From: Chloroflexia bacterium
GTDB lineage: Bacteria > Chloroflexota > Chloroflexia > QHBQ01
Reading direction: 5' to 3'
DNA length: 29,594 nt
Assembly: GCA_038239995.1 (NCBI GenBank)
Contig: JBBSEE010000001.1
Coordinates: 1 to 29,594 of the forward strand
Shown here piece after piece: positions 1 through 29,435 of this stretch; within the stretch, counting starts at the first letter, position 1, and the number at the start of each line of letters is the position of its first letter. The translations under genes and the position numbers were made by a program. The notes under the pieces are model-generated. The model saw only the letters and a list, made by a program, of their open reading frames with translations, did not search any database and had not been told where the DNA came from.

Positions 1-486
1 CAGGCGGTGCAGCAAGCCCTGAACCTAACCCGCGCCAACCTAGAGGAGACCCGCCGTTCGGTGCTGGACTTGCGGGCCGCCCCGCTGGAAGGGCGCAGCC
101 TTGCCGAGGCCCTCACCGCGCTGGCTGAGGCGTTGAAGCAGCAACACGTGCAGGTGGCCCTCACCACCGTAGGGGCGAACCAGCCGCTGCCGCCCCGCAT
201 CGAAGTGGGGATGTACCGCATCGCCCAAGAAGCCCTCACCAACATCGTGCAGCACGCCCACGCGCGGCGGGTCAACATCGAACTGAGCATCAGCGCGGCG
301 GGGGTGCGACTGCTGGTGCAGGACGATGGGGCAGGCTTCGCCCCCGACACAGTGACGGCGGGCCGCTACGGGCTGATTGGCCTCAACGAGCGGGCGCGGC
401 TGCTGGGTGGGCGGCTCGACTTGCAGACCACCCCCGGCGCGGGCACGCGGCTGGAAGTGAACGTGCCATTGGACAAACGTACATGA
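1..486 (+). CDS. Sensor histidine kinase, C-terminal part (HisKA_3/HATPase_c, NarX/LiaS-like); 5'-truncated by the window edge
   Basis: Frame is open from base 1. Motifs ETRRSVLDLR, YRIAQEALTNIVQH (N box), DDGAGF (G1), GLIGLNER (G2), GAGTRL. Stop overlaps the regulator start (ATGA). Confidence 0.9.
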   Translation, partial: QAVQQALNLTRANLEETRRSVLDLRAAPLEGRSLAEALTALAEALKQQHVQVALTTVGANQPLPPRIEVGMYRIAQEALTNIVQHAHARRVNIELSISAAGVRLLVQDDGAGFAPDTVTAGRYGLIGLNERARLLGGRLDLQTTPGAGTRLEVNVPLDKRT

Positions 487-1136
487 GCGAACCGATACGT
501 ATCCTCGTCGCCGACGACCATCCCGTGGTGCGCGAGGGGTTGGTGGCGATTCTCAGCACCCAACCCGACTTCCTCGTGGTGGGCGAAGCGGTCACGGGGC
601 GGGAGACGGTGGAGCGGGCCTTGACCCTGCGCCCCGACGTGCTGCTGCTCGACCTTGCGATGCCGGAGCTAGACGGAGTGGAGGCCTTGCGCCGGATACG
701 GGCGCGTAACCCCGCGATACATGTGATTGTGTTCACCGCCTTCGACACCGATGAGCGCATCCTCGACGCGGTGCGGGCGGGGGCGCAAGGTTATCTGCTC
801 AAGGGTGCCCCCCGCGAGGAGATATTCCGCTCCATTAGGGTGGTCAGCGCGGGTGGGGCGTTGCTGCAACCGATGGTCGCCTCCCGTCTGCTGCACCACC
901 TCAGCGAACGCGATGGCGACCTGCCCGGCCAGCGGCTAACCCCGCGCGAGCAGCAGGTGCTGGAACTGCTGGCGCAGGGCAAGGCGAACAAGGAGATTGC
1001 CGCCGCCCTCGTGGTCAGCGAACGTACCGTCAAGTTCCATGTCAGCACGGTGATGAAGAAGCTAGGGGCGGCCAATCGCACCGAGGCGGTCAGCATCGCC
1101 GCCCAGCGTGGGCTGATTGCGCTACACATTGCCTAA
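483..1136 (+). CDS. NarL/LuxR-family response regulator (REC + HTH)
   Basis: ADDHPVVREG, LLDLAMP phospho-Asp, GYLLK; C-terminal LTPREQQVLELLAQGKANKEIA...TVKFHVS. Confidence 0.95.
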   Translation: MSEPIRILVADDHPVVREGLVAILSTQPDFLVVGEAVTGRETVERALTLRPDVLLLDLAMPELDGVEALRRIRARNPAIHVIVFTAFDTDERILDAVRAGAQGYLLKGAPREEIFRSIRVVSAGGALLQPMVASRLLHHLSERDGDLPGQRLTPREQQVLELLAQGKANKEIAAALVVSERTVKFHVSTVMKKLGAANRTEAVSIAAQRGLIALHIA

Positions 1137-1137
1137 A

Positions 1138-1155
1138 CCTGTACCAAAGTACAGG
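1138..1155. promoter_or_regulatory. Palindrome CCTGTAC-CAAA-GTACAGG, candidate response-regulator binding site
   Basis: Perfect 7-4-7 inverted repeat about 94 nt upstream of the ankyrin gene. No U-tract follows, so a terminator is less likely. Confidence 0.45.
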
Positions 1156-1248
1156 CGGCAAACTGGCCCGATGCGCGATGCAGGCGGGCCGCGCAATTTG
1201 TTATCCTATAAGCGTGGCTAGCGAGACGCAGCCAGAGAGGGGACGAAA

Positions 1249-1743
1249 GTGAACAGTATTGACGATTTGATGACCGCCATCAAAGCGGGCGACGAGGCGA
1301 AGGTGGAGAAGTTGCTGGCGGATGACCCCCAGCTAGCTAGCGAGTACGACGCGCGAGGCCGCACCCCGCTGCACATCGCCGCCTACCTCGGCCACCGCGC
1401 GATTGCCGATTTGCTGCTGGTCAGCGGCGCGGACCTCCACGCCCGTTCGCGCAACGAGCTAAACAATCAGCCCCTGCATATGGCGGCGGCGGGTGAACAG
1501 GGCGAGATGCTGGCCCATCTCATCAGCAAGGGCGCGGATGTGAACTCACGCGAGATAGACGGCTACACCTGCATCCACGAGGCCGCCTTGCTGGGGCAAC
1601 TAGACATGGTGGAAACCCTGCTCGCCAACGGGGCGGAGATAAACAGCCGTAAGGATGACGGCAAGACTCCTTTGACCCTAGCAATCGAGAAGGGGCAAGA
1701 GCAGGCCGCCGCGTGGCTACGCCAACATGGCGGCATCGAATAG
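1249..1743 (+). CDS. Ankyrin repeat protein (about 4 repeats)
   Basis: GRTPLHIAA, QPLHMAA, YTCIHEAA, GKTPLTLA. GAGAGGGG Shine-Dalgarno (SD) sequence before the GTG start. Confidence 0.92.
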   Translation: MNSIDDLMTAIKAGDEAKVEKLLADDPQLASEYDARGRTPLHIAAYLGHRAIADLLLVSGADLHARSRNELNNQPLHMAAAGEQGEMLAHLISKGADVNSREIDGYTCIHEAALLGQLDMVETLLANGAEINSRKDDGKTPLTLAIEKGQEQAAAWLRQHGGIE

Positions 1744-1755
1744 AGGAGCGTAACG

Positions 1756-2469
1756 ATGAGCAAAGTTGCATTGATAACTGGCGCGAGTCGGGGGCTGGGT
1801 GAGGTGGTTGCCAGCTTCCTTGCCGCGCAGGGGTACGATGTGGTGATTACCGCGCGGGGCGAGGCCGCATTGCAGGCGGTGGCGGATAGGCTACGCGGCT
1901 ACGGTGGCGCGGTGGTCGCCCTAGCCGGGGATGTGGCCGACCCCGCGCATCGGCAGCGGCTGGCGCAGGCGGCGGCAGAGTTGGGCGGGCTGCACCTGCT
2001 GTTCAATGGCGCGTCTGACCTCGGCCCCAGCCCGATGCCCTATTTGGCCGACTACGACCTCGCGCGGCTGGCCGAGGTGCTGAAGGTCAACCTGCTATCG
2101 CCGCTGGGGCTGATACAGCAGACCCTGCCGCTGCTCAAGGATAGTGGCGGGCTTGTAGTGAACATCTCCTCCGACGCAGCGGTGGCGGGCTACGAGGGCT
2201 GGGGCGGCTATGGGGCTAGCAAGGCGGGGCTAGACTTGCTCTCCCTCACCCTTGCCCACGAACTGAGCGGCAGCGCGGTCAGTGTGGTGGCAGTTGACCC
2301 CGGCGATATGCGTACCCAGATGCACCAAGATGCCTTCCCCGGCGAGGACATCTCCGACCGCCCCCTGCCCGATGTGACCCTGCCCTTCTGGGCGTGGCTG
2401 CTGGGCCAAGAGCGGGCGGCGATAAACGGCAAGCGTTATCAAGCCCAAGCGGAGCGGTGGGAGGTTTAG
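1756..2469 (+). CDS. Short-chain dehydrogenase/reductase (SDR)
   Basis: TGASRGLG Rossmann motif, NISS, YGASK catalytic motif, DPGDMRT. SD AGGAG. Confidence 0.93.
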   Translation: MSKVALITGASRGLGEVVASFLAAQGYDVVITARGEAALQAVADRLRGYGGAVVALAGDVADPAHRQRLAQAAAELGGLHLLFNGASDLGPSPMPYLADYDLARLAEVLKVNLLSPLGLIQQTLPLLKDSGGLVVNISSDAAVAGYEGWGGYGASKAGLDLLSLTLAHELSGSAVSVVAVDPGDMRTQMHQDAFPGEDISDRPLPDVTLPFWAWLLGQERAAINGKRYQAQAERWEV

Positions 2470-2470
2470 G

Positions 2471-3547
2471 GTGAAGAGTGATGTGCTATACTTCGACCGC
2501 CCCGCCGCCCTGCAAGCGACCGCCCCCGCCGAGACGCGGGGATTGGCGCGGGACGAGGTGCGCCTGCTGGTCAGCACCCCGCGCGGCCACACCCACGCCC
2601 GCTTCGACGAACTGGCCCGCTTCCTCTGCCCCGGCGACCTGCTAGTGGTGAACACCAGCGCGACCCTGCCCGCCAGCCTGCCCGCCGCGCACAAGGATGG
2701 TGAGTTCATCGTCAATCTATCCACCCGCTACGGCGCGGGGCTGTGGCTGGCCGAACCGCGCTACAGTGCCGCCCAACCCGGCCCCCTCCCCCTATACGCG
2801 GGCGACAGGCTGCGGGTGGCCGATTTGCCCGCGCGGCTGGTCGCCCCCTATCCCGCTATCCCCCGCCTGTGGTTCATCCACTTCGACGGCGATATCGCGA
2901 CGGCGATGGCGCGGCATGGGCAGCCGATACGCTACGGCTATATGCCGCATCGCTACCCCCTATCCGCCTACCAGACCATCTTCGCCCACGTGCCGGGCAG
3001 CGCGGAGATGCCCTCAGCGGCCCGCCCCTTCACCCCCCGCGTGCTGGACTCGCTGCGGGCGCGGGGGGTGGCCCTTGCGGAGATTACCCTGCACACCGGG
3101 GTGAGCAGCCTCGAAGTGGAGGCGGAGGAGATAGAGCAGCACCCCCTCTACGCCGAGCCGTTCGCTGTCCCCGCCACCACCGCTGAGGCAGTCAACGCGA
3201 CGCGGGCAGGGGGGCGGCGGGTCATCGCGGTTGGCACTACCGTGGTGCGGGCCTTGGAGTCGGCGTGGGATGGCGGGCAAGTCCGCGCCGCGCGGGGCTT
3301 CACCCGCCGCTATGTGCATCCCGCGCAAGGGGTGCATACGATTGATGGGCTGCTCAGTGGCCTGCACGACCCGATGGCGAGCCACTTGGCGATGCTCTAC
3401 GCGGTTGCGGGCGAACCGCTCATCCGTGAGGGTTACGCGGCAGCGATTGCCGCAGGCTACTTGTGGCATGAGTTCGGCGACAGTCATCTGATATTGCCAG
3501 AGAGGAAGATAAACCATGAACCGAGCCGAGTTCGGGGCGTGGATTGA
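2471..3547 (+). CDS. S-adenosylmethionine:tRNA ribosyltransferase-isomerase (QueA) family protein, divergent QueA-like paralog
   Basis: RDEVRLLV, GDLLVVN, YQTIFA, TLHTG, IAVGTTVVRALES and FGDSHLI map onto QueA blocks, but several core QueA motifs are altered (see findings). Confidence 0.88.
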   Translation: MKSDVLYFDRPAALQATAPAETRGLARDEVRLLVSTPRGHTHARFDELARFLCPGDLLVVNTSATLPASLPAAHKDGEFIVNLSTRYGAGLWLAEPRYSAAQPGPLPLYAGDRLRVADLPARLVAPYPAIPRLWFIHFDGDIATAMARHGQPIRYGYMPHRYPLSAYQTIFAHVPGSAEMPSAARPFTPRVLDSLRARGVALAEITLHTGVSSLEVEAEEIEQHPLYAEPFAVPATTAEAVNATRAGGRRVIAVGTTVVRALESAWDGGQVRAARGFTRRYVHPAQGVHTIDGLLSGLHDPMASHLAMLYAVAGEPLIREGYAAAIAAGYLWHEFGDSHLILPERKINHEPSRVRGVD

Positions 3548-3890
3548 GCGGCTGGGACAGGCATGGGAAGCGAGTGACCCCGACGCGGCCACCGCCCTGT
3601 TCACCACCGATGCCCGCTATCACGAAAACCCTTTCGCCGCCCCAATGCAGGGCCAAGCAGCCATCCGCGAGTATTGGGCCGATGTGCCGCGCAGCCAGCG
3701 CGAGATTAGCTTCCAGTTCGACATCCTGCTGGTCGAGGGTGATAGCTGCATCTTCCACTGGCGGGCCAGCTTCACCCGTATCCCCAGCGGCGCGGCGGTA
3801 CGGCTGGACGGCGCGACCCTCATATCGCTGAACCCGCAAGGCCAATGCTACCTCCTGCGCGAGTGGTGGCACCGGGAAGAACAGTTATGA
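3516..3890 (+). CDS. NTF2-like / SnoaL-like domain protein
   Basis: AWEASDPDAATALFTTDARYHENPFAAPMQGQAAIREYW and the C-terminal LREWW pattern. Overlaps the upstream gene by 32 nt. Confidence 0.85.
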   Translation: MNRAEFGAWIERLGQAWEASDPDAATALFTTDARYHENPFAAPMQGQAAIREYWADVPRSQREISFQFDILLVEGDSCIFHWRASFTRIPSGAAVRLDGATLISLNPQGQCYLLREWWHREEQL

Positions 3891-4060: not shown

Positions 4061-4328
4061 GTAGGGTGGGCGGCCTGCCCTGCTGAAGAGTATCAATTGC
4101 CACTTGGAGCCAGCAACATAGACAGTTATACCAATTAGCTGAGGAGATGGTATAATTTGTGTAGGGGCGCAGATTTATTGCGCCCATCCGTTTTTCCCAG
4201 CACCATAACTAATTGGTAACAGTTATTATCCTGTCCGCTTGTCCGCTTTCAAGTCCGCTGGCGGTAAGTTCGTCGCTCAAGATGAACATTGATATAGGCT
4301 AACAGGGTGGGCCGCCGCCCACCCCTAC
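4061..4328. repeat. Inverted pair of GTAG REPs (4061-4080 +, 4303-4328 -) bracketing MITE B; REP-doublet-like
   Basis: gtagggtgggcggcctgccctg on + and gtaggggtgggcggcggcccaccctg on -. Confidence 0.6.
4129..4218 (+). mobile_element. MITE family B (10-bp TIR TACCAATTAG, 7-bp flanking direct repeat ACAGTTA, internal GTAG REP)
   Basis: ACAGTTA at 4122-4128 and 4219-4225. TIRs at 4129-4138 and 4209-4218. REP at 4161-4185. Confidence 0.7.
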
Positions 4329-4388: not shown

Positions 4389-5204
4389 ATGTGGAATCCG
4401 GAGCAGTACCACCGCTACAGCGACGAGCGTAGCCGCCCCTTCTATGAGTTGCTGGCGCAGGTGCGGCTTGACGATCCGCGCGTGATTGCCGACCTCGGCT
4501 GCGGGTCGGGCGAGTTGACCGCCGTGCTAGCCCAACGCTGGCCGTCCGCCCGCATCTATGGAGTGGACAACTCGGCAGAGATGCTGGCCGCCGCCCAGCC
4601 CCACACCATTGCGGGGCGGCTCACCTTCGCGCATGGCGACCTCGCCACATGGTCGCCGCCCGCGCCGCTGGACTTGCTGTTCTCCAACGCGGCCCTCCAC
4701 TGGGTGCCGGAGCATCACCAACTGCTGCCCCACCTAGTCGGCCTGCTCGCGCCTGCGGGGGTACTCGCCTTCCAAGTGCCGGGTAACTTCGACCAGCCCA
4801 CCCATACTATTCTGGCGGAGCTACGCACCAGCCCGCGCTGGGCCGCCCAAGTGGGCAACGGGGTAGTCCGCAGCGGCAGCGTACAGTCGCTGGCATGGTA
4901 CTTCGAGTTGCTGACGGGGTTGGGGATGAGGATGGATGCGTGGGATACTACCTACCTGCACGTGCTGCAAGGCGAGGATGCCGTCCTAGATTGGGTGAAG
5001 GGCACGGCACTACGCCCCGTGATTGCCGCACTGGATGAGGCCGAGCAGGTCGAGTTCATCGCCGAGTACGCGGCGCGGCTGCGTGATGCCTACCCTCGCC
5101 GCGACTATGGCACCCTACTCCCCTTCCGCCGCCTCTTCGTGGTAGCAGAAAAGATTTTAGATTTTGGATTAGGGTTACGCGGTTGCGGGTGGATTTGTAC
5201 CTGA
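4389..5204 (+). CDS. tam: Trans-aconitate 2-methyltransferase; last ~16 codons come from the repeat element
   Basis: MWNPEQY...ERSRPF, DLGCGSG, SNAALHWV, WVKGTALRP, PFRRLFVVA. SD AGGAGG. Confidence 0.93.
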   Translation: MWNPEQYHRYSDERSRPFYELLAQVRLDDPRVIADLGCGSGELTAVLAQRWPSARIYGVDNSAEMLAAAQPHTIAGRLTFAHGDLATWSPPAPLDLLFSNAALHWVPEHHQLLPHLVGLLAPAGVLAFQVPGNFDQPTHTILAELRTSPRWAAQVGNGVVRSGSVQSLAWYFELLTGLGMRMDAWDTTYLHVLQGEDAVLDWVKGTALRPVIAALDEAEQVEFIAEYAARLRDAYPRRDYGTLLPFRRLFVVAEKILDFGLGLRGCGWICT

Positions 5205-5854: not shown

Positions 5855-7165
5855 CTAACGTATCACCTCGCCAGTAAGCGGCGGCGGGGCAATCGGTTGG
5901 GGGCTGAATTGGTAGGCGGCCAGCAGTTGGGGGGCGATATGCTGCGCCGTCGCCTCGTCAGCGGCGTGGATGGTGAGCAGCGGTTCGCCCGCTTGCACCG
6001 CATCGCCCACCTTCTGGTGCAACACGAAGCCGACCCGTAGGTCTATCTGCGCCCCTTTCACCGTGCGCCCCGCCCCCAACGCGACACTGGCCCGCCCCAG
6101 CATCTCCGCATCTAGTGAGGATATGTACCCTGTGGACGGGCTGGGCAGCGGGGTCTGCTGCGGGGCGGTGGGCAGCCGAGCGGGGTCGTCAATCACCCGC
6201 ACATCGCCGCCCTGATTGATCACCATCTGGCGCAGCATCTCTAGGGCTGCCCCCGATGCGCGGGCTTGATTGAGGCGAGCATCCGCATCGGCTGCATCGC
6301 CCGCCACCCCTGCCATCAGCAACAACTCGCGGCCCAGATGTACCGCCTCGTCCCAAAGGTCAGCAGGCCCACCCCCACGCAAGGTCTCCACCGCCTCCCC
6401 CACCTCTAGCGCGTTGCCAATCGCCCACCCCAGCGGCTGGTCCATGCCCGACAGCACCGCGGCCACAGGTAGGCCCACCTGTCGGCCCAACGCCACCATC
6501 TGCGCGGCCAGCGCGGTGGCCTGCTCAAGCGTCTTCATGAACGCGCCCCGCCCATGCTTCACATCCAGCACCACCCCGCTCGCCCCTGCCGCTATTTTCT
6601 TCGACATGATGCTGGCGGCAATCAGCGGTAGCGCGTCCACCGTGCCGGTCACATCGCGCAGGGCATACAGCTTGCCGTCCGCGGGGGCGAGGGCGGCGGA
6701 TTGAGCGGTAATCACGAGGCCAACCCGCCGTACCGCGTCAATGAATTGGTCGGGGTCGAGGTTGACGTTGAAGCTGGGGATGGACTCCAGCTTATCAATC
6801 GTGCCCCCGCTGAAGCCGAGGCCGCGCCCGCTCATCTTGCCAATCGGCACCCCCGCGGCGGCGACCGCGGGGGCGACTACCAATGTGGTCTTGTCGCCCA
6901 CCCCGCCGGTGCTGTGCTTGTCGCCAATGAAGGGTAGGCCGGTGGCACGGCGTAGGTCGAGGTGTTCGCCGCTGGCTACCATCTCCATCGTCAAGGCGGC
7001 GGTTTCGGTCGGGTTCAGCCCCCGCAGCACGATTGCCATCAGCCATGCGGATATTTGGTAGTCGGGAATGTTGCCGCGCGTGTAACCCTGTATCATGTAG
7101 GAGATTTGCTCACGGCTGAGGGTCTGACCATCACGCTTGGCGATGATGATGTCCACCGCGTTCAT
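5855..7165 (-). CDS. pdp: Pyrimidine-nucleoside / thymidine phosphorylase
   Basis: DKHSTGGVGDK, MSGRGLGFSGGTIDKLE, DGKLYALRDVTG, ASIMSKKIA. Confidence 0.96.
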   Translation of the reverse strand: MNAVDIIIAKRDGQTLSREQISYMIQGYTRGNIPDYQISAWLMAIVLRGLNPTETAALTMEMVASGEHLDLRRATGLPFIGDKHSTGGVGDKTTLVVAPAVAAAGVPIGKMSGRGLGFSGGTIDKLESIPSFNVNLDPDQFIDAVRRVGLVITAQSAALAPADGKLYALRDVTGTVDALPLIAASIMSKKIAAGASGVVLDVKHGRGAFMKTLEQATALAAQMVALGRQVGLPVAAVLSGMDQPLGWAIGNALEVGEAVETLRGGGPADLWDEAVHLGRELLLMAGVAGDAADADARLNQARASGAALEMLRQMVINQGGDVRVIDDPARLPTAPQQTPLPSPSTGYISSLDAEMLGRASVALGAGRTVKGAQIDLRVGFVLHQKVGDAVQAGEPLLTIHAADEATAQHIAPQLLAAYQFSPQPIAPPPLTGEVIR

Positions 7166-8463
7166 CGCGCGTCCTCCTCGGCGGGCAAGGGGGTGGTGCC
7201 GCGCTTGAAGCTCACTTCGGTGCTACGTACCGGCTGGGGGAGGGTGGGCGATGCTCCCTCCGGCACAGCGGGCAGGGCTTCGCTGAGGCTGAGGTCTTCG
7301 CGGCCCAACAGCGTGGTGGCGTTCACCAGCGTGCCACCCCGATAGTAGAGGCGCGGCAGGCGGGGGGCGAGGGCGCAGCTAAGTTCGTAGCTAATCGTGC
7401 CACATAGCTCGGCCAGTTCGTCCAGTCCGATGTACTGTTCGCCCTGCGCCCCCACTATCACCACCTCATCTCCCTCGGCCACATGGGGAAGGTCGGTCAC
7501 ATCGGCGGCGGACTGGTCCATGCTGATGCGGCCAATCAGGGGGGCGGATTGGCCGCCAATCAGCACACGGCCACGCCCCCCCAACTCGCGCCGATAGCCG
7601 TCGGCATAGCCAATCGGCACGGTGGCGACAAGGGTGGGGCGGGTGGCAATGAAGGTGCGACCATAACCGACGCTGTCGCCGGGGGCAATTTGGACGAGGC
7701 GGGCGACATGGCTACGGATGCTCAACACGGAAGTGAGGGCCACTTCGCTGGCGGCGCGGACGGCGGGCGAGGGGTAGAGGCCGTGCAGCAGCAACCCACA
7801 GCGCACGAGGTTGAAGTGACCGGCGGGGGCGGTGATAGTGGCCGCGCTGTTGTCGGCATGAAGGATGGGGAAGCGCAGTCCGCGTTCGGCCAGCATCTCG
7901 CGCCCCGCGTTGAAGTGGGCAAGCTGGGTGTGGACGAAGCTCTGGTCGGCATCGTCGGCGGTGGCAAGGTGGGTGTACAGCCCCTCGGTATGCAGGTTAC
8001 GCATGGTGGCGAGGGCGGTGGCAAGTTCGCTCAGTTCGGGGGCGGGGCGGCCAAAGCGGTGCAACCCACTGTCCAGCTTGATATGCACCGGGCTGGTCAC
8101 GCGACACTGGAAGGAGATGTTGTCTAGGGTGTGGGCCAGTTCGAGCGAGTTGACCGTGAGGGTAAGGTGATGCGCGACTGCCGCCCCTGCCTCGGAGGGG
8201 GCGGCGTGGCCCATTACCAAGATGGGGTGGCGGATACCGGCGAGGCGCAGTTGCACCCCCTCGTCCACCAACGCGACCGCCAGCCAAGTCGCCCCACTAT
8301 CCAGCGCGGTGCGGGCGAAGGCGGGTGCGCCGAGGCCATAGGCGTTGGCCTTGACCACCGCCATCAGTTCCACCTCGCGGCCTAGCCAACCCTTCAGGCT
8401 ACGCACGTTGGCGGAGAGGGCATCGAGGTTGACTTCCGCTCTGGTGACTCGGCCAGACCACAT
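7162..8463 (-). CDS. alr: Alanine racemase
   Basis: VVKANAYG (PLP lysine), HIKLDSGLHRFG, VGYG catalytic Tyr, GYADG, GRISMDQ, TISYEL. Confidence 0.96.
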   Translation of the reverse strand: MWSGRVTRAEVNLDALSANVRSLKGWLGREVELMAVVKANAYGLGAPAFARTALDSGATWLAVALVDEGVQLRLAGIRHPILVMGHAAPSEAGAAVAHHLTLTVNSLELAHTLDNISFQCRVTSPVHIKLDSGLHRFGRPAPELSELATALATMRNLHTEGLYTHLATADDADQSFVHTQLAHFNAGREMLAERGLRFPILHADNSAATITAPAGHFNLVRCGLLLHGLYPSPAVRAASEVALTSVLSIRSHVARLVQIAPGDSVGYGRTFIATRPTLVATVPIGYADGYRRELGGRGRVLIGGQSAPLIGRISMDQSAADVTDLPHVAEGDEVVIVGAQGEQYIGLDELAELCGTISYELSCALAPRLPRLYYRGGTLVNATTLLGREDLSLSEALPAVPEGASPTLPQPVRSTEVSFKRGTTPLPAEEDAR

Positions 8464-8468
8464 TCGGT

Positions 8469-10199
8469 TTACTCCAATACACTGAGGGCAAGGGGGATGT
8501 ACATCAGCAAATCACCGGCCAACAGGCCGACTGCGCGGCTGAGGCCCATGCTCTCGGCCCCCAACTGGGCGGCGCGGGCGTGCAGGTAAACCCCCGCGAC
8601 CGCCGCTTCGGGCGCGGTCAACCCCTGCGCCAGCAGCCCGGCGATGATACCGGCCAACACATCGCCGCTGCCCGCAGTGGCAAGTAGGGCACTGGCGTAA
8701 TCGCTGCGGGCGTAGCGTACCTGTCCGCCCTCTGCGCTGGCTATCAAAGTGTGCGCCCCCTTGAGGATGATGGTGTGCCCGAAGCGGCGCACCGCCGCGC
8801 CAATCGCCGCCGCGCGGTCGCGCTGCACGCTCTCTGCACTGTACTCCTTACCCAGCAGGCGGGCCAGTTCGCCGGGGTGGGGGGTCAGCACCGTCTCGGC
8901 GGGGAGATGCTCCCACCACTTGTCGCCATCCAGCGCGGCCACCGCGTTCAGCCCATCAGCATCCAGCACCATGCGGTCGGGCAAGGCAGGCTTGCTGGGC
9001 TGCTCCTTACCCTCACTCTTCTTTTCGTTGGTGGCAGGGCGATTGAAGCCGAGGCCGGGCGAGTTCGCTTTGTGGCTCCGCGCCGCCTCGCGCTGCACCC
9101 CCAGCAGGCGGTAGACGAACGCCTGCGTCTCCTTCTCTTGCCCAATGCCGGGGCCGAGCAGCAGCACGTTGTAGCCCTTGTCCGCAATCGCCTTCGCCAC
9201 CATCTCGTCGGCGCGAGTGGCAATCACCCCCATATCGGTAGGCAGGGGCAAGAAGGTGGACTCGGTGAGCTTAATCTGGAACAGTTCCAGCAAATCGCCT
9301 GCGGTCGCCAGTGTGGTCAGCCCCGCGCCCACCCGCATCGCCGCGCTGGTGGCTAGATACGCCGCGCCGGTGTAGTTGATGCTGCCCGCGACCACCAGAC
9401 ACTTGCCGAAGCTGCCCTTGTTCGCGTCATCCTTGCGCTCCGGCAAGAGGCGGGCGACCCAATCGGGGGTGATGTCTTGCCAATTGCTCATCTGCACATC
9501 TCCTATCCAAAACAATCCAAAATCTAAAATCCCAATGTCCAGCACCTCGACCTTGCCCGCCGCCTTCGCCCCCTCGCCTTGCAGCAGTCCGGGTTTGAGG
9601 TAGGCGAAGGTGCAGGTGAGGTTGGCCCGCACATAATCGGGGCTAATCGCCGCGCCGGTATCCGCGTCTATGCCGGTGGGGATGTCTACCGCGACCAGCG
9701 GCGGGCGGCTCTCCTCCATCTCGCCTTGTACGTTGAGGAGTTCGCCCAATACATCTTCAAGGTCGGCGGGAAACGGGCCGTGCTGGCCGGTGCCGAGGAG
9801 CGCATCTACTACTATATCGGCGGCGTAGAGCAAGTCGTTCAGCTTCTCTTGATGATAGTCGCGGGCGGCAAGGTAGATAGGCAAGCCCGCCGCGATTGCC
9901 TCGCCCAACGGCCAATCGCTCTCCGCCGCAGGGTTGGTATTGCGCTTCCAGATGTATAGGCAGATATGGGCAGGGTCCAGCTTGGCGGCTAGTTGCCTAG
10001 CGCAGACGAGACCGTCACCCCCATTGTTGCCGGGGCCGATTAGCACCAACACGCGAGGGTCGGCTTTGCCCTCTAGCAGATGCAGCACATGGTCGGCCAC
10101 CCCTGCCCCCGCCCGCCGCATCATCTCGTCGTAGCTGAGACCGCGGGCGTTGGCAGCGGCTTCAAGTTCGCGCATCTGGGCACTGGTTACGGTTTGCAT
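8469..10199 (-). CDS. nnr: Bifunctional NAD(P)H-hydrate epimerase/dehydratase (NnrE-NnrD)
   Basis: GPGNNGGDG, VDALLGTG, AVDIPTG; KGSFGK, GPGIG, VLDADGL, LTPHPGE, TAGSGDVLAG. Start moved to ATG 10199 because of a GAGGA SD. Confidence 0.94.
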   Translation of the reverse strand: MQTVTSAQMRELEAAANARGLSYDEMMRRAGAGVADHVLHLLEGKADPRVLVLIGPGNNGGDGLVCARQLAAKLDPAHICLYIWKRNTNPAAESDWPLGEAIAAGLPIYLAARDYHQEKLNDLLYAADIVVDALLGTGQHGPFPADLEDVLGELLNVQGEMEESRPPLVAVDIPTGIDADTGAAISPDYVRANLTCTFAYLKPGLLQGEGAKAAGKVEVLDIGILDFGLFWIGDVQMSNWQDITPDWVARLLPERKDDANKGSFGKCLVVAGSINYTGAAYLATSAAMRVGAGLTTLATAGDLLELFQIKLTESTFLPLPTDMGVIATRADEMVAKAIADKGYNVLLLGPGIGQEKETQAFVYRLLGVQREAARSHKANSPGLGFNRPATNEKKSEGKEQPSKPALPDRMVLDADGLNAVAALDGDKWWEHLPAETVLTPHPGELARLLGKEYSAESVQRDRAAAIGAAVRRFGHTIILKGAHTLIASAEGGQVRYARSDYASALLATAGSGDVLAGIIAGLLAQGLTAPEAAVAGVYLHARAAQLGAESMGLSRAVGLLAGDLLMYIPLALSVLE

Positions 10200-10287
10200 A
10201 GTTTTATCCTCGGTAATCTGGCAAAGCCGCCAGCGGACTTGAAAGCGGACAAGCGGACGGCGTTGATGCGGGGCACGCGGTGATTTC

Positions 10288-10614
10288 CGATGAGCATTGA
10301 TGCGCTTCAGCAGGGCGGATACAATTCGCCCCAACGCCAGCCGCAGTCTCCGCTGCTCCGCTGAACTTAATCCGCTGGCGGGTCGGCGGGGCGTGATAAA
10401 TCCGCGCCCCTACGCTAGCCAATCCGTTTATCCGTTTTTTCAATCCGTTGGCCGTAGTCACGATGAGCATGGGTGAGCCTCGGCAGGGCGTGATAAATCA
10501 CGCCCCTACGTCAAGCCTTCCGCGTTTTCCGCACTCTTCCGCGTTTTCCGCGATTCTAAACCCTCGATGCACCTTGATGCGCGTCAGCAGGGCGGGATAA
10601 ATCCGCGCCCCTAC
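10288..10614 (-). repeat. Cluster of four GTAG-type REPs plus short CCGCGTTTT / ATCCGTT repeats
   Basis: REPs at 10311-10335 (GTTG variant), 10388-10413, 10484-10509, 10588-10614. Two carry the tail CCTGCTGAxGCGCATCAA. Confidence 0.8.
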
Positions 10615-10625
10615 TAAGCCTCTAA

Positions 10626-10664
10626 CTCAAACCTCAAACCTCAAACCTTACTCATGCCTCATGC
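10626..10664. repeat. Heptamer arrays (CTCAAAC)3 and (CTCATGC)2 downstream of the acpS stop
   Basis: Read directly at 10626-10646 and 10651-10664. Confidence 0.8.
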
Positions 10665-10665
10665 C

Positions 10666-11136
10666 TCATTGCTGGTCACGGGCGAAAGCATCGTATGCCC
10701 CCTCGCCGCTGGCGGCCATCACCATCGCGATGCCGATAGTGCGCTCGTGGGTGAGGCTGACCGCCCAACGGGTGAGGTTGATTTGGCGGGCGCGGGCGGC
10801 AGCTTGACCGTGCAGGTAGACCATCGGTCGCCCGCGGCGGTCAATGATAATCTCGATTTCCTGCCAGCGGATGCCGCGAATGCCGGTACCTAGCGTCTTG
10901 CTGACCGCTTCTTTGGCGGCAAAGCGCACCGCTAGCTCGGATACCCGCCCGCGACAGTATTGCCGCTCCGCCTCAGTGTAGATGCGGTGCAGGAACTTGT
11001 CGCCCCACCGCTCGATGACCTCGATGATGCGCGGTATCTCGATGATGTCCACCCCGCATTGCAGGTTGTCGGTGACGAACGCCTCGGTATCCACGCGGGC
11101 GATGAAGGGGGGAAGGTTGGCGGAGAAAGGGAACAT
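10666..11136 (-). CDS. acpS: Holo-[acyl-carrier-protein] synthase
   Basis: GVDIIEI, RFAAKEAVSKTLGTG, GRP, VSLTHE. Sits in the usual acpS-nnr-alr order. Confidence 0.94.
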   Translation of the reverse strand: MFPFSANLPPFIARVDTEAFVTDNLQCGVDIIEIPRIIEVIERWGDKFLHRIYTEAERQYCRGRVSELAVRFAAKEAVSKTLGTGIRGIRWQEIEIIIDRRGRPMVYLHGQAAARARQINLTRWAVSLTHERTIGIAMVMAASGEGAYDAFARDQQ

Positions 11137-11138
11137 GG

Positions 11139-12437
11139 TTAATTCCTACCCATGCCCGCGTACTCGAAGCCCGCCTCGCGGATTTCCGCCGGTTCGTACA
11201 GGTTGCGGCCATCCACCAATAGCGGGCGGTGCATACCCTGCTTCACCCGCTCCATGTCCAGTTGCTTGAACTCGTTCCACTCGGTGAGCAGTAGCACTGC
11301 ATCCGCCCCCGCCGCCGCCTCATAAGCATCAGTGCATAGCTGGAGGGCGGGGAACTGGCGGCGGGCCACATCCATCGCCATCGGGTCGTAGGCGCGGACC
11401 GTCGCCCCGCCCGCCAGCAAACCCGTGATAATGTCAATCGAAGGAGCCTCGCGCATATCGTCGGTGTTCGGCTTGAAGCTGAGGCCCCAGAGGGCGATTT
11501 GCTTGCCCTTCAGGTCGCCGCCCAGTAGCTTCTTCACCTTGTCCACGAAGTAACCGCGCATCGCATTGTTAATCGTGATAATCGAGTGGAACAGGGTGGC
11601 ATCCACATTGTGGTCGGCGGCGACCATTGCCAGCGATTTCACATCCTTGGGGAAGCAACTCCCACCATAGCCGATACCGGCGTTGAGGAACTGGGGGGCG
11701 ATGCGCTTGTCGTAGCCCATCCCCTGCGCGACTTGCTTCACATCCGCGCCGAGGTGTTCGCACATTAGGGCGATTTGATTGATGAAGCTGATGTAGTTGG
11801 CGAGGATGGCGTTGGAGGCGTACTTAATCATCTCCGCGGTGCGTAGGTCGGTGATGAGGATGGGAGCCTTGAGCGGCTCGTACAGCTTGGCGACTGCTTC
11901 GGCGGCGGTGCGGTCGGCAGAGCCAATCACCACGCGGTCAGGGTTGAGGAAGTCGGCAATCGCTTGGCCCTCGCGCATGAACTCTGGGTTGGAGACCACC
12001 GCGTAGGTTTGGCTGTCGTTGACATGCTGGGCGATAATCTCATGCACCCAATCGCCCGTGCCAATCGGCACCGTACTCTTGTTCACAATCACGGTGTGGC
12101 CGTGCAGGTGCTGGGCAATGGCGGTGGCCGCGGATTCGACGTAGCTCATGTCGGTATGGCCGTCCGGTGCTTCGGGGGTGCCTACCGCGATGAACACAAA
12201 GTCGGCATCAGGTATCCCCTCGGTATAGTCGGTGGTGAAGTAGAGGCGACCCGCCTTCTGGTTGCGATGCACGATTTCCTCCAGCCCCGGCTCGTAGATG
12301 GGCATCTCGCCGCGCCGCAGTTGCTCCACCTTAGCAGCGACCACATCTATGCAGGTGACATGGTTGCCGAGGTCGGCAAAGCAGGCGGCGGCGGGCAGGC
12401 CCACGTAGCCGGTGCCTACAACGCAAATCTTACTCAA
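11139..12437 (-). CDS. ugd: UDP-glucose 6-dehydrogenase
   Basis: GTGYVG, NKSTVPIG, SNPEFMREG, KYASNA, GYGGSCFPKD, FKPNTDDMRE. TTG start. Confidence 0.96.
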   Translation of the reverse strand: MSKICVVGTGYVGLPAAACFADLGNHVTCIDVVAAKVEQLRRGEMPIYEPGLEEIVHRNQKAGRLYFTTDYTEGIPDADFVFIAVGTPEAPDGHTDMSYVESAATAIAQHLHGHTVIVNKSTVPIGTGDWVHEIIAQHVNDSQTYAVVSNPEFMREGQAIADFLNPDRVVIGSADRTAAEAVAKLYEPLKAPILITDLRTAEMIKYASNAILANYISFINQIALMCEHLGADVKQVAQGMGYDKRIAPQFLNAGIGYGGSCFPKDVKSLAMVAADHNVDATLFHSIITINNAMRGYFVDKVKKLLGGDLKGKQIALWGLSFKPNTDDMREAPSIDIITGLLAGGATVRAYDPMAMDVARRQFPALQLCTDAYEAAAGADAVLLLTEWNEFKQLDMERVKQGMHRPLLVDGRNLYEPAEIREAGFEYAGMGRN

Positions 12438-12478
12438 GGTTCATGTTCCTTTCTCTATGCACGGATAACTGCCGCAAG

Positions 12479-13897
12479 TCAGCGGGCTTGCAGCGAAACG
12501 TTGGTAACTACGGAGTGATAGTCGTGCCCAGCGGCGTATATCTCTAGCTTGACGATGCGCTTCATCCCCTTCAGCCCCGGCAAATCCAGCAGGTTGGCTA
12601 TCTCCACGTGTACCCACTGGTCGCCCGCGATTTGCTGGCCGATGTTGGGGTCAATCGGCTTGGGGCCGGGAGTGAAGTAGTAGCGGTACTCCCACGGGAT
12701 TTCGTTGTCGCTATCGCCGGTCTTATAGGTGAACTTGAAGATGAGCGGGGCTTCCACCCCCGCGTCGCCGAGGCCTGCCACAGTTTGGGCAAGCAAGCGT
12801 ACATCGGCGGACAGGCGAATCTTGCCCGCCGGGATGTAGGGGCTGAGGTCGCGGTCGAGTTGCTGGCCGATGGCGATGGAGGCGTAGTCAGTGGTGCCGC
12901 AGCAGCGGTAGAACTCGGCGGCGTGGACGCGGGCGTTGACTAGGGTATTCAGCGTGTCGGTAATCGCCACCTGTCCGTTCAGGTTGCCGCCGTCCAGCCC
13001 TTGATTGGGGATGGGCTGGCCCCAATGTTCCAGCTTATCGGTGAAGGTGCCGTCTACGATGAACTCATCCCACGCCTCGGCGATGCTAGGCAGACCCATT
13101 CCGCCAGTGCCCACCGTCGCCATTTGGTAGAGACCGATACCGACGGGCGGGACGCTATCCTGCGCGTTGGTCATGGTCGCGCCGCCTTGCAACACGGTGG
13201 CGCGGCTATAGAAGTAGTATTGCTGGGGGCCGGAGCGGAGCGCGGAGTTGGGGTCGGAGGCGGTGGAGATACGCACTGTGCTGGCGGGGTTAACCTCGAC
13301 ATGGGCGAGCAGCGCGGCGCAGGCGAGGTTGGTCAGTTCCGCGCAGGTGTTCACCACTACATGGCTGTTGCGGTAGCCGTTGTTCGGCTGCGAGGGTACG
13401 CCCACGATGATATAGCTGCCGGGGTTGCTGTTGAGGTTGAGGAAGGGCTGCTGGGTGAGGGTGATGTTGACCTGCTCGTGGCTGAAGCGGCTGGCCTGTA
13501 TCTGGTTGACGGTGATTTGGGTGTTGGGGAAGACCTGTACGAGGCTGCCGTCGGGGAGGATGAGGCGAGCTTGGGTGTCCACCCCGGTGCGAATGGTGTC
13601 GCCATCGCCGATTTCGCTCTTCACCGCCCCACTGGGGTCAGGGGCGGGGGCGGTATATTGCGCGGAGATGACCTTCTTGATGGTCAGGTCGGTGCCGGTG
13701 TCGCGCACCACGGTGGCGGTTACTGCGCTGGTGGCGTTGGCATAGACGGAATAGCCGAACTGTACCAGCCCGTAGACAATCAGGCAGAACACCGCGAAGC
13801 CGAGTAGCATCACCACCCACGCGATGGTGCGGTGGCGGCTGGCCTCACGCGGCGAGGAGGTTGGTTTGGCTAGTTGGTCGATCGCGCTCAATCTCAT
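12479..13897 (-). CDS. Membrane-anchored hypothetical protein with a FecR-like beta domain
   Basis: N-terminal hydrophobic helix (IAWVVMLLGFAVFCLIVYGLV). GDTIRTG...ARLILPDGSLVQVFPNT resembles FecR N-terminal strands. Confidence 0.7.
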   Translation of the reverse strand: MRLSAIDQLAKPTSSPREASRHRTIAWVVMLLGFAVFCLIVYGLVQFGYSVYANATSAVTATVVRDTGTDLTIKKVISAQYTAPAPDPSGAVKSEIGDGDTIRTGVDTQARLILPDGSLVQVFPNTQITVNQIQASRFSHEQVNITLTQQPFLNLNSNPGSYIIVGVPSQPNNGYRNSHVVVNTCAELTNLACAALLAHVEVNPASTVRISTASDPNSALRSGPQQYYFYSRATVLQGGATMTNAQDSVPPVGIGLYQMATVGTGGMGLPSIAEAWDEFIVDGTFTDKLEHWGQPIPNQGLDGGNLNGQVAITDTLNTLVNARVHAAEFYRCCGTTDYASIAIGQQLDRDLSPYIPAGKIRLSADVRLLAQTVAGLGDAGVEAPLIFKFTYKTGDSDNEIPWEYRYYFTPGPKPIDPNIGQQIAGDQWVHVEIANLLDLPGLKGMKRIVKLEIYAAGHDYHSVVTNVSLQAR

Positions 13898-14511: not shown

Positions 14512-15846
14512 ATGTCGAGCAAAGCAAGCGTCGGGCGCATTACGTTGATGCTCGTGCTGTTGATGGTGCTGACCAGTTGCGACCGCGCCACCCCCGCCAC
14601 CCCCCAGCAGGCCGCGATTGCCACCCTTGTAAGTTCGCCCCTTCCCGCCGCCACGAACCCCGCCCCCTTGCCCACCCCCCAAGCCACCGATACCGTACTG
14701 CTGCCCACCCCCGGCCTGACTGTCGAGCCACCCACGTTCACCCCTGATCCGACTGCGCCAAGTGTAACTCCTATGCTACCTACTCCGCCTACACCGCCTA
14801 CAGCTATTGCGCTCTCCACTGAACCGATCAGCTCTAGCACTAGTGTTACTCCGTTGGTTTGGGGCGCACAAGCTAATAGCGTACTAACTATCTGGCTGGG
14901 CTATCTTAGTTCAATGCCTACTCCCGCTCTTTCCGATGCTCACCCTATTGTCCAAATCAGCGGGATTTACTTCCTTGATGACATTAAGGTATCACCCGAC
15001 CTAAAGCGCATAGCGGTTCTCGTGGAAGATAATGCCAACATTGGGGAAGCAGGTGATAATAATAGGTGGGTCGTAGTGGCGGATTTGAACACGAACGCAC
15101 CTTATGTTATCCCCGACTACTCACGGCAAGCCTACTCATATACGACCGCGCTTTATATCCAAAATATTCTTGCTTGGATAAGCAACGACAAGATTGCGGT
15201 TCAAGGGAAGAGGGCGGTAACAATAAACGCCGCTGATGGCACGATTGCATCACAATGCTCAACACCTCCCGGCAATCTGAGGTCGGATACGATGGCACTT
15301 TCAGCTGACCATACTACCCTGTTTTACTGGATAGTAAGCGTAGACAGCTACGCAGGCTACTGGTTGCAAGGGCTAGATTGTAGCAACCCGCATAAAATAG
15401 TTGCTGATGCCGATACAGTAGCAGGAATGGCCTTTCCTAGCTGGTCACCTGATGGTAGGTACATTAGTTTTGTCTCTGGCACACACCTATGGTTGTTGGA
15501 TACCAACGACAACTCCGTAAGGATGACACCCGCAGATAGGGTGGCTACAAGCGCACAATATTGGTCTCCAGACAGCAAGTACATAGCTTTTCTTCGCGAT
15601 AACGACCTAGCGCACCCCGGTTCTAACACCGATGTGTTCATGCTAAGGATGGCCGACATGGGTATTAGCCAGCTAACTAGCAGCGGAGGACATAAAGGTA
15701 ACTTGCAGTGGTCCGCAGATGCCAGCCAAATCATCTTTGACAACTCTGACAGCATCGTTGCTACTTCAACCAAAGATGGACAACCAACCAACCTTATTAG
15801 TAGGCTTACCGGGACAACCATTAGTCGTCCTACACTTTTCCGCTAA
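14512..15846 (+). CDS. Lipoprotein with Pro/Thr linker and TolB/PD40-like beta-propeller
   Basis: Lipobox VLTSC after a hydrophobic stretch; PTP-rich linker; repeats VSPD, SWSPDG, YWSPDS, QWSAD. Confidence 0.82.
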   Translation: MSSKASVGRITLMLVLLMVLTSCDRATPATPQQAAIATLVSSPLPAATNPAPLPTPQATDTVLLPTPGLTVEPPTFTPDPTAPSVTPMLPTPPTPPTAIALSTEPISSSTSVTPLVWGAQANSVLTIWLGYLSSMPTPALSDAHPIVQISGIYFLDDIKVSPDLKRIAVLVEDNANIGEAGDNNRWVVVADLNTNAPYVIPDYSRQAYSYTTALYIQNILAWISNDKIAVQGKRAVTINAADGTIASQCSTPPGNLRSDTMALSADHTTLFYWIVSVDSYAGYWLQGLDCSNPHKIVADADTVAGMAFPSWSPDGRYISFVSGTHLWLLDTNDNSVRMTPADRVATSAQYWSPDSKYIAFLRDNDLAHPGSNTDVFMLRMADMGISQLTSSGGHKGNLQWSADASQIIFDNSDSIVATSTKDGQPTNLISRLTGTTISRPTLFR

Positions 15847-15880
15847 CCATGTAGATAAACCAATGTTGGGAGGGAAAGCT

Positions 15881-29285: not shown

Positions 29286-29435
29286 GGCCGGTATTCCTTT
29301 CCACAATAAAGGTTGATAGTAGGGATGCGCCCGCACAGGGGCGCGATAATTAAAATCAGCGGCTACTGAGTTATGTAGCACCAGCCGCAACGCAGCTAGC
29401 CACCCCCATAAGATGGTGGGTGGCGGCAGTTTGGG

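Follow-up and report, generated by a model that had tools for sequence, protein, structure and literature searches.

Canonical QueA, which transfers and isomerizes the ribosyl group of SAM onto preQ1-tRNA, is the closest described relative of the protein considered here, and 35-40% of residues are identical between that protein and canonical Chloroflexota QueAs, which share its two-domain fold family. A second point of reference is provided by the SoxR regulons of non-enteric bacteria such as Pseudomonas aeruginosa and Streptomyces coelicolor, consisting of a few oxidoreductases, monooxygenases and pumps that are induced by redox-active metabolites. To our knowledge, no QueA-family enzyme has been described in any SoxR regulon.

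The locus lies at the start of a 29,594-nucleotide stretch of a Chloroflexia contig, called here the window. As the first-pass annotation had described, six genes occupy one strand (the forward strand), and open reading frames and Pfam families agree on their identities and spacings. The contig begins within the gene of a HisKA_3-type sensor histidine kinase, of which the C-terminal part is present (1-486; Pfam HATPase_c); full-length orthologues (in L003, L004, L149 and L150) consist of GAF, HisKA_3 and HATPase_c domains within about 376-393 amino acids. The kinase gene overlaps by 4 nt that of a NarL/GerE-family response regulator (483-1136; Response_reg and GerE). There follow the genes for an ankyrin-repeat protein of 164 amino acids (1249-1743; Ank_2 and Ank), after a 12-nt gap a classical SDR (1756-2469; adh_short), 1 nt further on a QueA-family paralog of 358 amino acids (2471-3547), and, overlapping this by 32 nt, a SnoaL_2/NTF2-like protein of 124 amino acids (3516-3890; SnoaL_2). 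A terminator-like hairpin with a T-run on the same strand (4165-4185), found by a consensus scan whose sites are no commoner than in shuffled sequence, is a possible end of the operon, and an unrelated gene for a Tam-like methyltransferase starts beyond it at 4389.

The QueA-like protein belongs to the Queuosine_synth superfamily, matching PF02547 over residues 7-341 (248.4 bits, against a gathering cut-off of 25), and phmmer matches it to 1wdi, 1vky and 1yy3. However, it falls below the curated cut-offs of both NCBIfam QueA equivalog models, scoring 179.5 bits against 324 for NF001140 and 147.3 against 267.45 for TIGR00113. The search for a second, canonical queA in the genome, proposed along with the first-pass annotation, located one on another contig (C234:3126-4262), adjoining ruvB and passing both models (426 and 382 bits, respectively). 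In an IQ-TREE phylogeny of 126 rows, made by a quick search and rooted by canonical QueAs alone, the canonical proteins make up one side of the tree (SH-aLRT 91), and 107 paralog rows form a clade with support of 98. The window protein lies outside the canonical clade, which together with the missed cut-offs bears out the view that it is a paralog and not the housekeeping QueA. Judged by its sequence, the gene is a member of a large sister family of QueA present in many bacteria and some archaea; the 102 loci compared are spread over at least 10 bacterial phyla, the Thermoplasmata and the Bathyarchaeota. The paralog clade itself has a small sister group, including P0254, whose gene is followed by one encoding a PqqD-like peptide-recognition protein.

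None of five canonical signatures (PLPPYI, S.AAPTAGLHF, HVG.GTF, TNFHLP and YRF.SFGDA) is found in the window protein. In their place, alignments to the solved QueA structures 1wdi and 1vky and to 14 canonical Chloroflexota QueAs put IRYGYM, SAEMPSAARPF, HTGVSSL, SGLHDP and (for canonical YRFYSFGDA) YLWHEFGDS, so the systematic rewriting of motifs noticed earlier is real. Nor is it drift, because the variant motifs are conserved in about 100 paralogs, with the consensus [IV]RY.Y[VL], SAEMPSA[GA]RPF, HTGV[SA]SL, TG[FWL]HEP and YLWHEFGD.

The SDR encoded next to the paralog carries a TGASRGLG motif, Arg34 (a residue of the NADP(H) type), the triad Ser139/Tyr152/Lys156 and a family-specific tail, VDPGDMRT.MHQ.AFPGEDISDRP; mean column identity in the SDR family alignment (A2) is 53%. 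In every one of the 99 compared loci that have upstream DNA, the gene immediately before the QueA-like gene encodes an orthologous SDR, and the linkage on whose conservation the first-pass annotation had staked its interpretation is therefore invariant. In L101 and L102, a single in-frame open reading frame covers both genes, and P0220 (589 amino acids) and P0245 (606 amino acids) are full-length in-frame fusions of SDR to QueA-like protein. The two proteins probably bind each other in a physical complex, to go by a model of the pair that scored 0.89, as against 0.38 for the best control. The score is the model's own confidence, at a mark that 58 of 80 solved complexes attain, as do 2 of 110 mismatched pairs; these counts hold roughly, as custom-made alignments were used and SAM and NADP were included. 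Three runs agreed in at least 97% of contacts, with partner pLDDT of at least 95, and the C-terminal tail of the SDR is predicted to dock on the beta-barrel of the QueA-like protein (residues 87-137). The SDR and QueA-like module is a family proposed here, no paper describing the pair having been found, and the window has a member of it, with the SDR gene 1 nt upstream and all of the paralog motifs in place.

It is this two-gene core, not the six-gene operon envisaged earlier, that recurs as a unit. An ankyrin homologue adjoins the module in 0 of the 101 other loci, the closest relatives included; the ankyrin gene is a lineage-specific insertion between regulator and SDR, and its suggested role as a partner in the pathway is not supported. 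The NTF2-like protein fares little better as a constant partner. On the P0004 contig a SnoaL gene follows the QueA-like gene, in L052 one precedes the SDR gene, and in L003 SnoaL forms the N-terminal part of a fusion with the SDR, but SnoaL was not found in most of the compared loci and is a sporadic accessory component.

The linkage to a two-component system does recur: 33 of 102 loci have a kinase/NarL pair beside the module, placed in one of three ways (upstream in the same direction, divergent, or downstream); a response regulator orthologue, at 120-290 bits, is adjacent in 32 of 102. The best NCBIfam matches of the two-component proteins (MadR/MadS, NarL and MctR) are all far below cut-offs. 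Of the signal-induced pathway that had been put forward, the two-component pair stands, but as one of three interchangeable types of regulator: SoxR adjoins the module in 15 of 102 loci and a SufR-like Fe-S regulator in 16, while about a third of loci are without an identified regulator. These alternatives point to redox stress rather than to a generic signal. The SoxR-like proteins have CIGCGCLSL..C in 15 of 15 cases (that of L125 scores 173 bits against TIGR01950, whose cut-off is 116.9), and the SufR-like proteins have three conserved Cys in common. Also, an Fe/Mn superoxide dismutase gene lies downstream of the module in two Rubrobacteraceae loci.

Upstream sequences carry corresponding signals. 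In 11 of 14 SoxR-adjacent loci, and in 6 further loci lacking an adjacent soxR, a SoxR box with a preceding TTGAC stands 46-99 nt ahead of the SDR gene; shuffled sequences gave a mean of 0.03. In these 17 loci the box lies between -35 and -10, as in SoxR regulons, whereas within 5 mismatches the box is absent from the window and from all 28 two-component loci searched. The window has instead an 18-bp palindrome, CCTGTAC-CAAA-GTACAGG (1138-1155), just past the stop codon of the response regulator gene and some 95 nt ahead of the ankyrin gene, the single match to its pattern in the whole window. It is not terminator-like, because no T-run follows. L035, L037 and L041 have palindromes resembling CTGT[AC]C..G[TG]ACAG in the equivalent position, and inspection by eye picked out looser ones in L081, L097 and L147; the window's palindrome is probably an operator for the response regulator. 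In actinomycete loci, palindromes resembling GG[TA]CCTAGG[AT]CC lie upstream of the SDR gene.

On balance, we lean toward reading the whole as an inducible redox-stress module consisting of a non-queuosine enzyme of the QueA sister clade and an obligate SDR partner. The earlier interpretation is in this way upheld in part, the observation behind it in full. The SDR and QueA-like pair would then be a widespread, stress-inducible two-enzyme module, most likely called on when cells meet redox or oxidative stress or redox-active compounds, although for the window this draws on the regulators of other lineages. The QueA-like enzyme probably applies SAM-ribosyl chemistry of the QueA type to a small molecule. 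In the window, the module would be driven by the adjacent kinase and NarL-type regulator, the orthologues of the kinase having a GAF sensor domain, and in other lineages it would stand behind SoxR-type promoters or beside a SufR-like Fe-S regulator. The QueA-like enzyme would deprotonate SAM at C5', the ribose ring would then open, adenine and methionine would leave, and the carbocycle would pass to a nucleophile. The acceptor may be a small molecule, accommodated in a pocket that the switched residues have reshaped. Inside the complex, the SDR could make or consume a labile substrate or product of its partner, and the SnoaL-like protein, where present, perhaps handles an epoxide or an isomerization.

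Whether the ancestral chemistry survives can be approached through the family alignment, in which 49 positions are common to paralogs and canonical QueA at 85% or more. Among them are R27, D28, D56, N61, YQT167-169, H208, E229, GTT255-257, R260, E263, H299 and FGD335-337, and because they include most of the invariant polar residues of QueA, the sulfonium-ylide chemistry is probably kept. Against these stand 12 invariant positions, within the five signature motifs, that are switched in the paralog (R132, Y155, E179, M180, S182, R185, H305, E334 and others). Neither set can be assigned to contacts with SAM, since we know of no SAM-bound QueA structure. Perhaps SAM-ribosyl transfer has been lost, and together with the SDR the protein has become an isomerase or lyase of another kind, whose substrate is a sugar, a nucleoside or a damaged metabolite; repair or salvage of an oxidized thioether nucleoside would be one example. 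The charged or metal-binding type of the residues brought in (E179, R185, H305 and H333-E334) would suit such an enzyme, and redox-stress regulators would suit damage control, but the retained positions argue that the core chemistry was kept and make the loss of transfer unlikely.

The recurrence of the kinase and regulator in three arrangements has another possible meaning: that the pair of enzymes makes a SAM-derived cyclopentanoid signal sensed by the GAF kinase, an autoinducer-like loop comparable to CqsA/CqsS. Binding of small ligands is a property of GAF domains, and the AHL, AI-2 and CAI-1 signals are all made from SAM. However, the SoxR and SufR-like proteins that take over elsewhere would read redox state through Fe-S clusters, with no dedicated ligand, and no kinase was seen beside the module in the archaeal loci. 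Palindromes upstream of the SDR gene suggest moreover that the module is a regulated target, although feedback would still be compatible with them. We consider a signal loop improbable.

About equally improbable is that the module modifies a macromolecule other than preQ1-tRNA, such as an amine on another RNA, DNA, a protein or a peptide. The family's ancestral action on tRNA, the PqqD-like gene in the sister group and the protein-binding ankyrin module of the window lend this some appeal. Yet genes for nucleic acids or peptide precursors are not conserved beside the module, the proteins are acidic (in 9 of 10 same-genome pairs with a canonical QueA, the paralog is the more acidic member), the beta-barrel domain is taken up by the SDR in the model of the complex, and an SDR partner is better suited to the redox chemistry of small molecules.

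Queuosine itself is a poor candidate for the destination of the pathway. A tgt gene lies in the window (17409-18899), but TGT does not accompany the paralog throughout the family: it was not found in 45 of 67 paralog-bearing Actinomycetota genomes. In Amycolatopsis rifamycinica, Nonomuraea glycinis and a Streptomyces isolate, the paralog is the sole PF02547 gene, and all three are without TGT and QueF, their QueC matches (22-25 bits) being spurious. With no TGT or deazaguanine pathway to supply it, preQ1-tRNA cannot be the substrate in many hosts, as the earlier proposal of another substrate had anticipated. The QueA-like module probably carries out a new reaction unrelated to the queuosine of tRNA. 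Among Chloroflexota, canonical QueA accompanies the paralog in about 69 of 73 genomes, and two 92%-complete genomes (G208 and G368) have TGT with the paralog as their only QueA-family gene; within the phylum, a function connected with Q would be compatible with this pattern too. Assignment as a functional equivalog of QueA was considered and is contradicted by sub-cut-off scores, replaced motifs, a separate clade and TGT-free carriers. A second, stress-specific QueA isozyme, converting preQ1-tRNA to epoxyqueuosine-tRNA or a variant whose product the SDR modifies on the tRNA, could appeal to the PF02547 fold with its shared residues, the nearby tgt and the Chloroflexota genomes just described, but is scarcely credible in view of the carriers without TGT, the archaeal ones (archaea make archaeosine, not Q), the missed cut-offs, the switched positions and the greater acidity.

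Set beside SoxR regulons, the SDR and QueA-like module is alike in the 15 loci that lie divergent from or beside a SoxR gene with a TTGAC and SoxR-box promoter, and in having an NAD(P)H oxidoreductase (the SDR), as is typical of such regulons; the window differs in that its regulator is a kinase/NarL pair. That pair shares with DevS/DosT-DevR (DosR) the domain order GAF-HisKA_3-HATPase_c and a GerE-type regulator, and DosT and DevS are weak PDB matches of the kinase's ATPase domain; the palindromes ahead of the SDR gene in actinomycete loci are a further likeness. However, the kinase orthologues have one GAF domain where DevS and DosT have two, and the PDB sequence search gave no match over the GAF domain, on whose resemblance to the haem-binding GAF domain in DevS it is therefore silent. 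The window SDR has TGxxxGxG, the Ser-Tyr-Lys triad and the NADP-type Arg in common with sepiapterin reductase and YciK-like classical SDRs, from which its family-specific C-terminal tail sets it apart. Among solved structures, 3i1j, an SDR that is itself uncharacterised, comes closest (112 bits), whereas sepiapterin reductase (72 bits) matches no better than FabG-type reductases. As for canonical QueA, that of the window's own genome adjoins no regulator gene, whereas the paralog adjoins one in about two thirds of loci and is always paired with an SDR or fused to it.

The first 3.9 kb of the window carries six genes, all on the forward strand: the 3' part of a histidine kinase gene cut by the start of the contig (1-486), a NarL/GerE response regulator (483-1136), an ankyrin-repeat protein (1249-1743), a classical short-chain dehydrogenase (SDR; 1756-2469), a QueA-like protein of family PF02547 (2471-3547), and a SnoaL_2 protein (3516-3890). 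The first-pass annotation saw here an operon linked to a two-component system and built around a QueA-like enzyme with rewritten motifs, and the spacings it gave for the last four genes (12 nt, 1 nt, and an overlap of 32 nt) are exact. The motif changes are borne out by alignment of the protein to solved QueA structures and to 14 canonical QueAs from the same phylum, and with 179.5 bits the gene falls well short of the cut-off of 324 set for NF001140, the NCBIfam QueA equivalog. The same annotation raised the matter of a separate canonical queA. One is present: contig C234 carries a second gene, in which every canonical motif is intact and which scores 426 bits, so the genome also has a normal queA. 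Its tgt, encoding tRNA-guanine transglycosylase (TGT), lies within the window (17409-18899) but on the reverse strand and 14 kb from the QueA-like gene, hence not in the same operon. The TGT is 496 amino acids long; its TGT domain ends at residue 381 and is followed by a C-terminal extension of about 115 amino acids that has no Pfam match.

The QueA-like protein belongs to a clade of the QueA family separate from the canonical enzymes. A word-indexed search gave thousands of relatives, the best 120 of which are 63-74% identical to it, several of them named from Chloroflexi, Caldilineaceae or Anaerolineae MAGs, and when representatives at 50% identity were searched exhaustively with HMMER, 797 clusters matched at E ≤ 1e-30. 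The variant motifs are kept across about 100 of these paralogs, as [IV]RY.Y[VL], SAEMPSA[GA]RPF, HTGV[SA]SL, TG[FWL]HEP, and YLWHEFGD. A maximum-likelihood tree with 126 rows places the canonical QueAs on one side (SH-aLRT 91); 107 paralog rows group together in a clade with support 98, and four more rows make up a small sister group to it. The two families conserve the same residue at 49 positions, and at 12 others (T65, R132, Y155, E179, M180, S182, R185, S213, G297, H305, L309, and E334) each family is conserved but differs from the other. Where source databases give the paralogs a name, it is QueA or "queuosine biosynthesis protein", which is probably wrong.

The sister group, a third within the QueA family (proteins P0200, P0248, P0254, and P0271; loci L151:430-1972 and L152:395-1937), has the motifs S.E.P[ST]AGRHF, TNFHGP, and Y.FYE[FL]GD. 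No SDR gene lies upstream; downstream are a gene for a PqqD-like (peptide-recognition) protein, an ORF of 64 amino acids, and then UDP-glucose dehydrogenase, GT4, and PIG-L genes. This group may represent a peptide- or glycan-linked use of the QueA fold. In one database protein, P0250 (573 amino acids), the first two thirds of a QueA-like sequence run into the GAF-HisKA_3-HATPase portion of the kinase, a joint that is probably an artefact of assembly or frameshift rather than a real fusion.

The paralog is widely distributed. Among 401 sampled Chloroflexota genomes, about 73 gave matches of the paralog class, at 190-320 bits as against 130-165 bits for canonical copies. In the Actinomycetota sample of 301 genomes, 68 had a match at E ≤ 1e-55 (67 of 300 when the unpublished genome G525 is set aside). 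At least 577 loci came out of a pattern scan across species-representative genomes, in Chloroflexota, Acidobacteriota, Deinococcota, Alphaproteobacteria, Bacillota, Gemmatimonadota, Eremiobacterota, and many Actinomycetota, and in cultured isolates that include Amycolatopsis rifamycinica, A. albidoflavus, Nonomuraea glycinis, Acrocarpospora, Planomonospora, and Streptomyces spp. It also found the paralog in archaeal MAGs labelled Thermoplasmata, Bathyarchaeota, and Methanobacteriota; a survey from 2005 had QueA homologues confined to bacteria. Three paralogs from the Actinomycetota sample (G487:C89:108148-109194, G413:C16:25362-26390, and G515:C74:18259-19293) are 59-62% identical to the window protein, while Chloroflexota species representatives reach at most 56%, and the family codes are scattered in the tree. 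Both observations suggest that the module (the SDR gene together with the QueA-like gene) has moved between phyla by horizontal transfer.

One might suppose that the paralog is simply an isozyme of QueA, acting in queuosine synthesis. It is true that in Chloroflexota canonical QueA nearly always accompanies it, and that two genomes, G208 and G368 (92% complete), have TGT and only the paralog. But in three actinomycete isolates the paralog is the sole PF02547 gene, no TGT or QueF was found, and matches to QueC were limited to fragments of 22-25 bits inside larger proteins. Of the 67 paralog-bearing Actinomycetota genomes, sampled at a minimum completeness of 90, 45 have no TGT match at E ≤ 1e-10. 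The two archaeal MAGs tested have TGT matches that are only weaker (233-259 bits, as against 390-515 bits for bacterial TGT) and probably represent the archaeosine TGT. TGT is needed to put preQ1 into tRNA, and QueC and QueF to make preQ1 in the first place, so in hosts lacking them the acceptor of the paralog cannot be preQ1. Free preQ1 as a general acceptor is likewise ruled out, since QueF and a convincing QueC are missing from the three isolates. The paralog family is thus independent of the queuosine pathway.

What does accompany the paralog is the SDR. Two sets of loci were compared, 22 and 80, for a total of 102, and the linkage to the SDR claimed at the outset held throughout: an orthologue of the window SDR lies directly upstream of the QueA-like gene in all 99 loci with upstream DNA, although the orthologue is sometimes split, fused, or truncated by a contig end. 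The SDR family is itself well conserved, with a mean column identity of 53%, and shares Arg34 (NADP type), the triad Ser139/Tyr152/Lys156, and a specific C-terminal tail. Identification of the SDR as sepiapterin reductase specifically was dropped, as the match (72 bits) is no closer than to many FabG-like SDRs. Two proteins, P0220 and P0245, are full-length fusions of SDR and QueA-like protein, and at loci L101 and L102 a single in-frame ORF spans both genes. The complex of the two window proteins was predicted from family alignments with SAM and NADP included. The model scored 0.89, the best control 0.38; the mark it reached is attained by 58 of 80 solved complexes and 2 of 110 mismatched pairs, a calibration that is only rough here because our own alignments and small molecules were used. 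Contact agreement between runs was at least 97%, and partner pLDDT at least 95. The predicted interface comprises the beta-barrel domain (residues 87-137, plus 227-228, 264, and 274-280) of the QueA-like protein and helix 20-26 and the family-specific tail (203-237) of the SDR. The model supports binding of the two proteins, though the score may stem from the model's memory; no QueA-SDR complex is known to us to have been solved. The QueA-like protein and its SDR are an obligate pair and probably form a physical complex.

The other proposed partners fared less well. No ankyrin gene adjoins the module in the other 101 loci, closest relatives included, and the ankyrin protein is therefore ruled out as a conserved partner. 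In one close relative (L149:6025-6240), an ORF of 71 amino acids belonging to no Pfam family occupies the place between regulator and SDR that the ankyrin gene has in the window. The SnoaL_2 protein, also put forward as a partner, does recur, but sporadically and in differing arrangements. It lies downstream in the window and on the contig of database protein P0004, precedes the SDR in L052, and in L003 forms the N-terminal part of an SDR fusion. Among proteins with an NTF2-like fold are epoxide hydrolases and isomerases. A SnoaL_2 protein handling an epoxide product of QueA-type chemistry would fit, though this is only a lead.

Neighbouring genes were clustered and scanned with Pfam and NCBIfam; as six-frame ORF clustering lumped antisense shadow ORFs together where the DNA was GC-rich, the analysis kept just those clusters that one of the two had confirmed. 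The recurring neighbours are regulators of three kinds, so the two-component linkage first described is real but only one version of the arrangement. A GAF-HisKA_3 kinase with a NarL regulator, the combination present in the window, adjoins the module in 33 of the 102 loci. SoxR does so in 15, all with CIGCGCLSL..C (the regulator of L125 scores 173 bits against TIGR01950, cut-off 116.9), and a SufR-like winged-helix protein in 16, including most archaeal loci with upstream DNA. The SufR-like protein scores 100 bits against TIGR02702, below the cut-off, and has three conserved cysteines. In two Rubrobacteraceae loci, a gene for Fe/Mn superoxide dismutase lies just downstream.

The upstream DNA differs with the regulator. 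We scored sites by mismatches (up to 5) to the 18-bp sequence CCTCAAGTTAACTTGAGG, which we take to be the soxS-type SoxR box, with TTGAC ahead of it. Of 14 SoxR-adjacent loci, 11 have such a site 46-99 nt ahead of the SDR start, while none of 28 two-component loci does. Another 6 loci have it too, both Amycolatopsis isolates among them, and shuffled sequences gave a mean of 0.03 matches. The two-component loci have other palindromes in its place: CCTGTAC-N4-GTACAGG in the window (1138-1155), with similar ones in several Chloroflexota, Acidobacteriota, and Rubrobacteraceae loci, and sites like GG[TA]CCTAGG[AT]CC in actinomycetes. Acidimicrobiia loci with the SufR-like gene carry ACAAGG-N5-CCTTGT. 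From regulators and sites together, it would seem that the SDR/QueA-like pair is what the local regulator, of whichever type, controls. The module thus has dedicated regulators, often redox-sensing: two of the three types are Fe-S redox sensors. As for the signal sensed by the kinase, a PDB sequence search matched the kinase core only, the GAF domain having no match.

The genes that follow the module look like unrelated housekeeping: on the forward strand a Tam-like methyltransferase (4389-5204; 314 bits, just below the cut-off of 320), and on the reverse strand (5855-13897) pyrimidine-nucleoside phosphorylase, alanine racemase, a fused NAD(P)HX epimerase/dehydratase, UDP-glucose dehydrogenase, and a 472-amino-acid protein with no Pfam match. 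Between 15000 and 17400, G+C drops to 0.47-0.53 from about 0.62-0.68 elsewhere, over a PD40/DPP-IV-like protein (14512-15846) and an M23 peptidase (15719-17407); this region may be acquired DNA. A very long ORF (1711 amino acids) lies on the reverse strand at 24255-29390.

How might the module work? QueA-type SAM-ribosyl chemistry would appear to be retained, since most invariant polar residues are kept; a loss of SAM chemistry, which the rewritten motifs would suit, is less probable and would have to accommodate them. The 12 switched residues may have remodelled the pocket for an acceptor that would be a small molecule. Less probably, the paralog would modify a macromolecule, as QueA itself does; in net charge the paralog tends only weakly to be more acidic than the canonical copy, with the window's own pair the exception. 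Equally improbable is that the pair synthesizes a signal for the adjacent kinase; two of the three regulator types sense redox state. In the favoured reading, the SDR would supply or consume a labile partner, and the physiological role would be in coping with redox-active compounds or oxidative stress. We lean, if only slightly, toward this package as a whole. A more specific version, in which the complex carries out a second and hitherto unrecognized reaction of the QueA fold, is unlikely: the SDR would reduce a quinone, phenazine, or similar redox cycler to a nucleophile sensitive to oxygen, and the QueA-like subunit would cap it at once with a carbocycle derived from SAM ribose, the whole serving as a detoxification or modification system under SoxR, SufR-like, or two-component control.

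About one in five of the Actinomycetota and Chloroflexota genomes sampled has the module, as do some archaea, and control by SoxR or SufR-like proteins in many lineages gives it a concrete, testable setting, redox-active compounds or oxidative stress. Cultured hosts exist, such as Amycolatopsis rifamycinica DSM 46095, Nonomuraea glycinis, and Streptomyces spp. We found no description of this paralog in the searchable full-text literature. To our knowledge, QueA is the only enzyme that transfers and isomerises the ribosyl group of SAM, and its fold has one known reaction. If the SAM-ribosyl chemistry is retained, the module would open up a further branch of SAM biochemistry and add a member to SoxR regulons.
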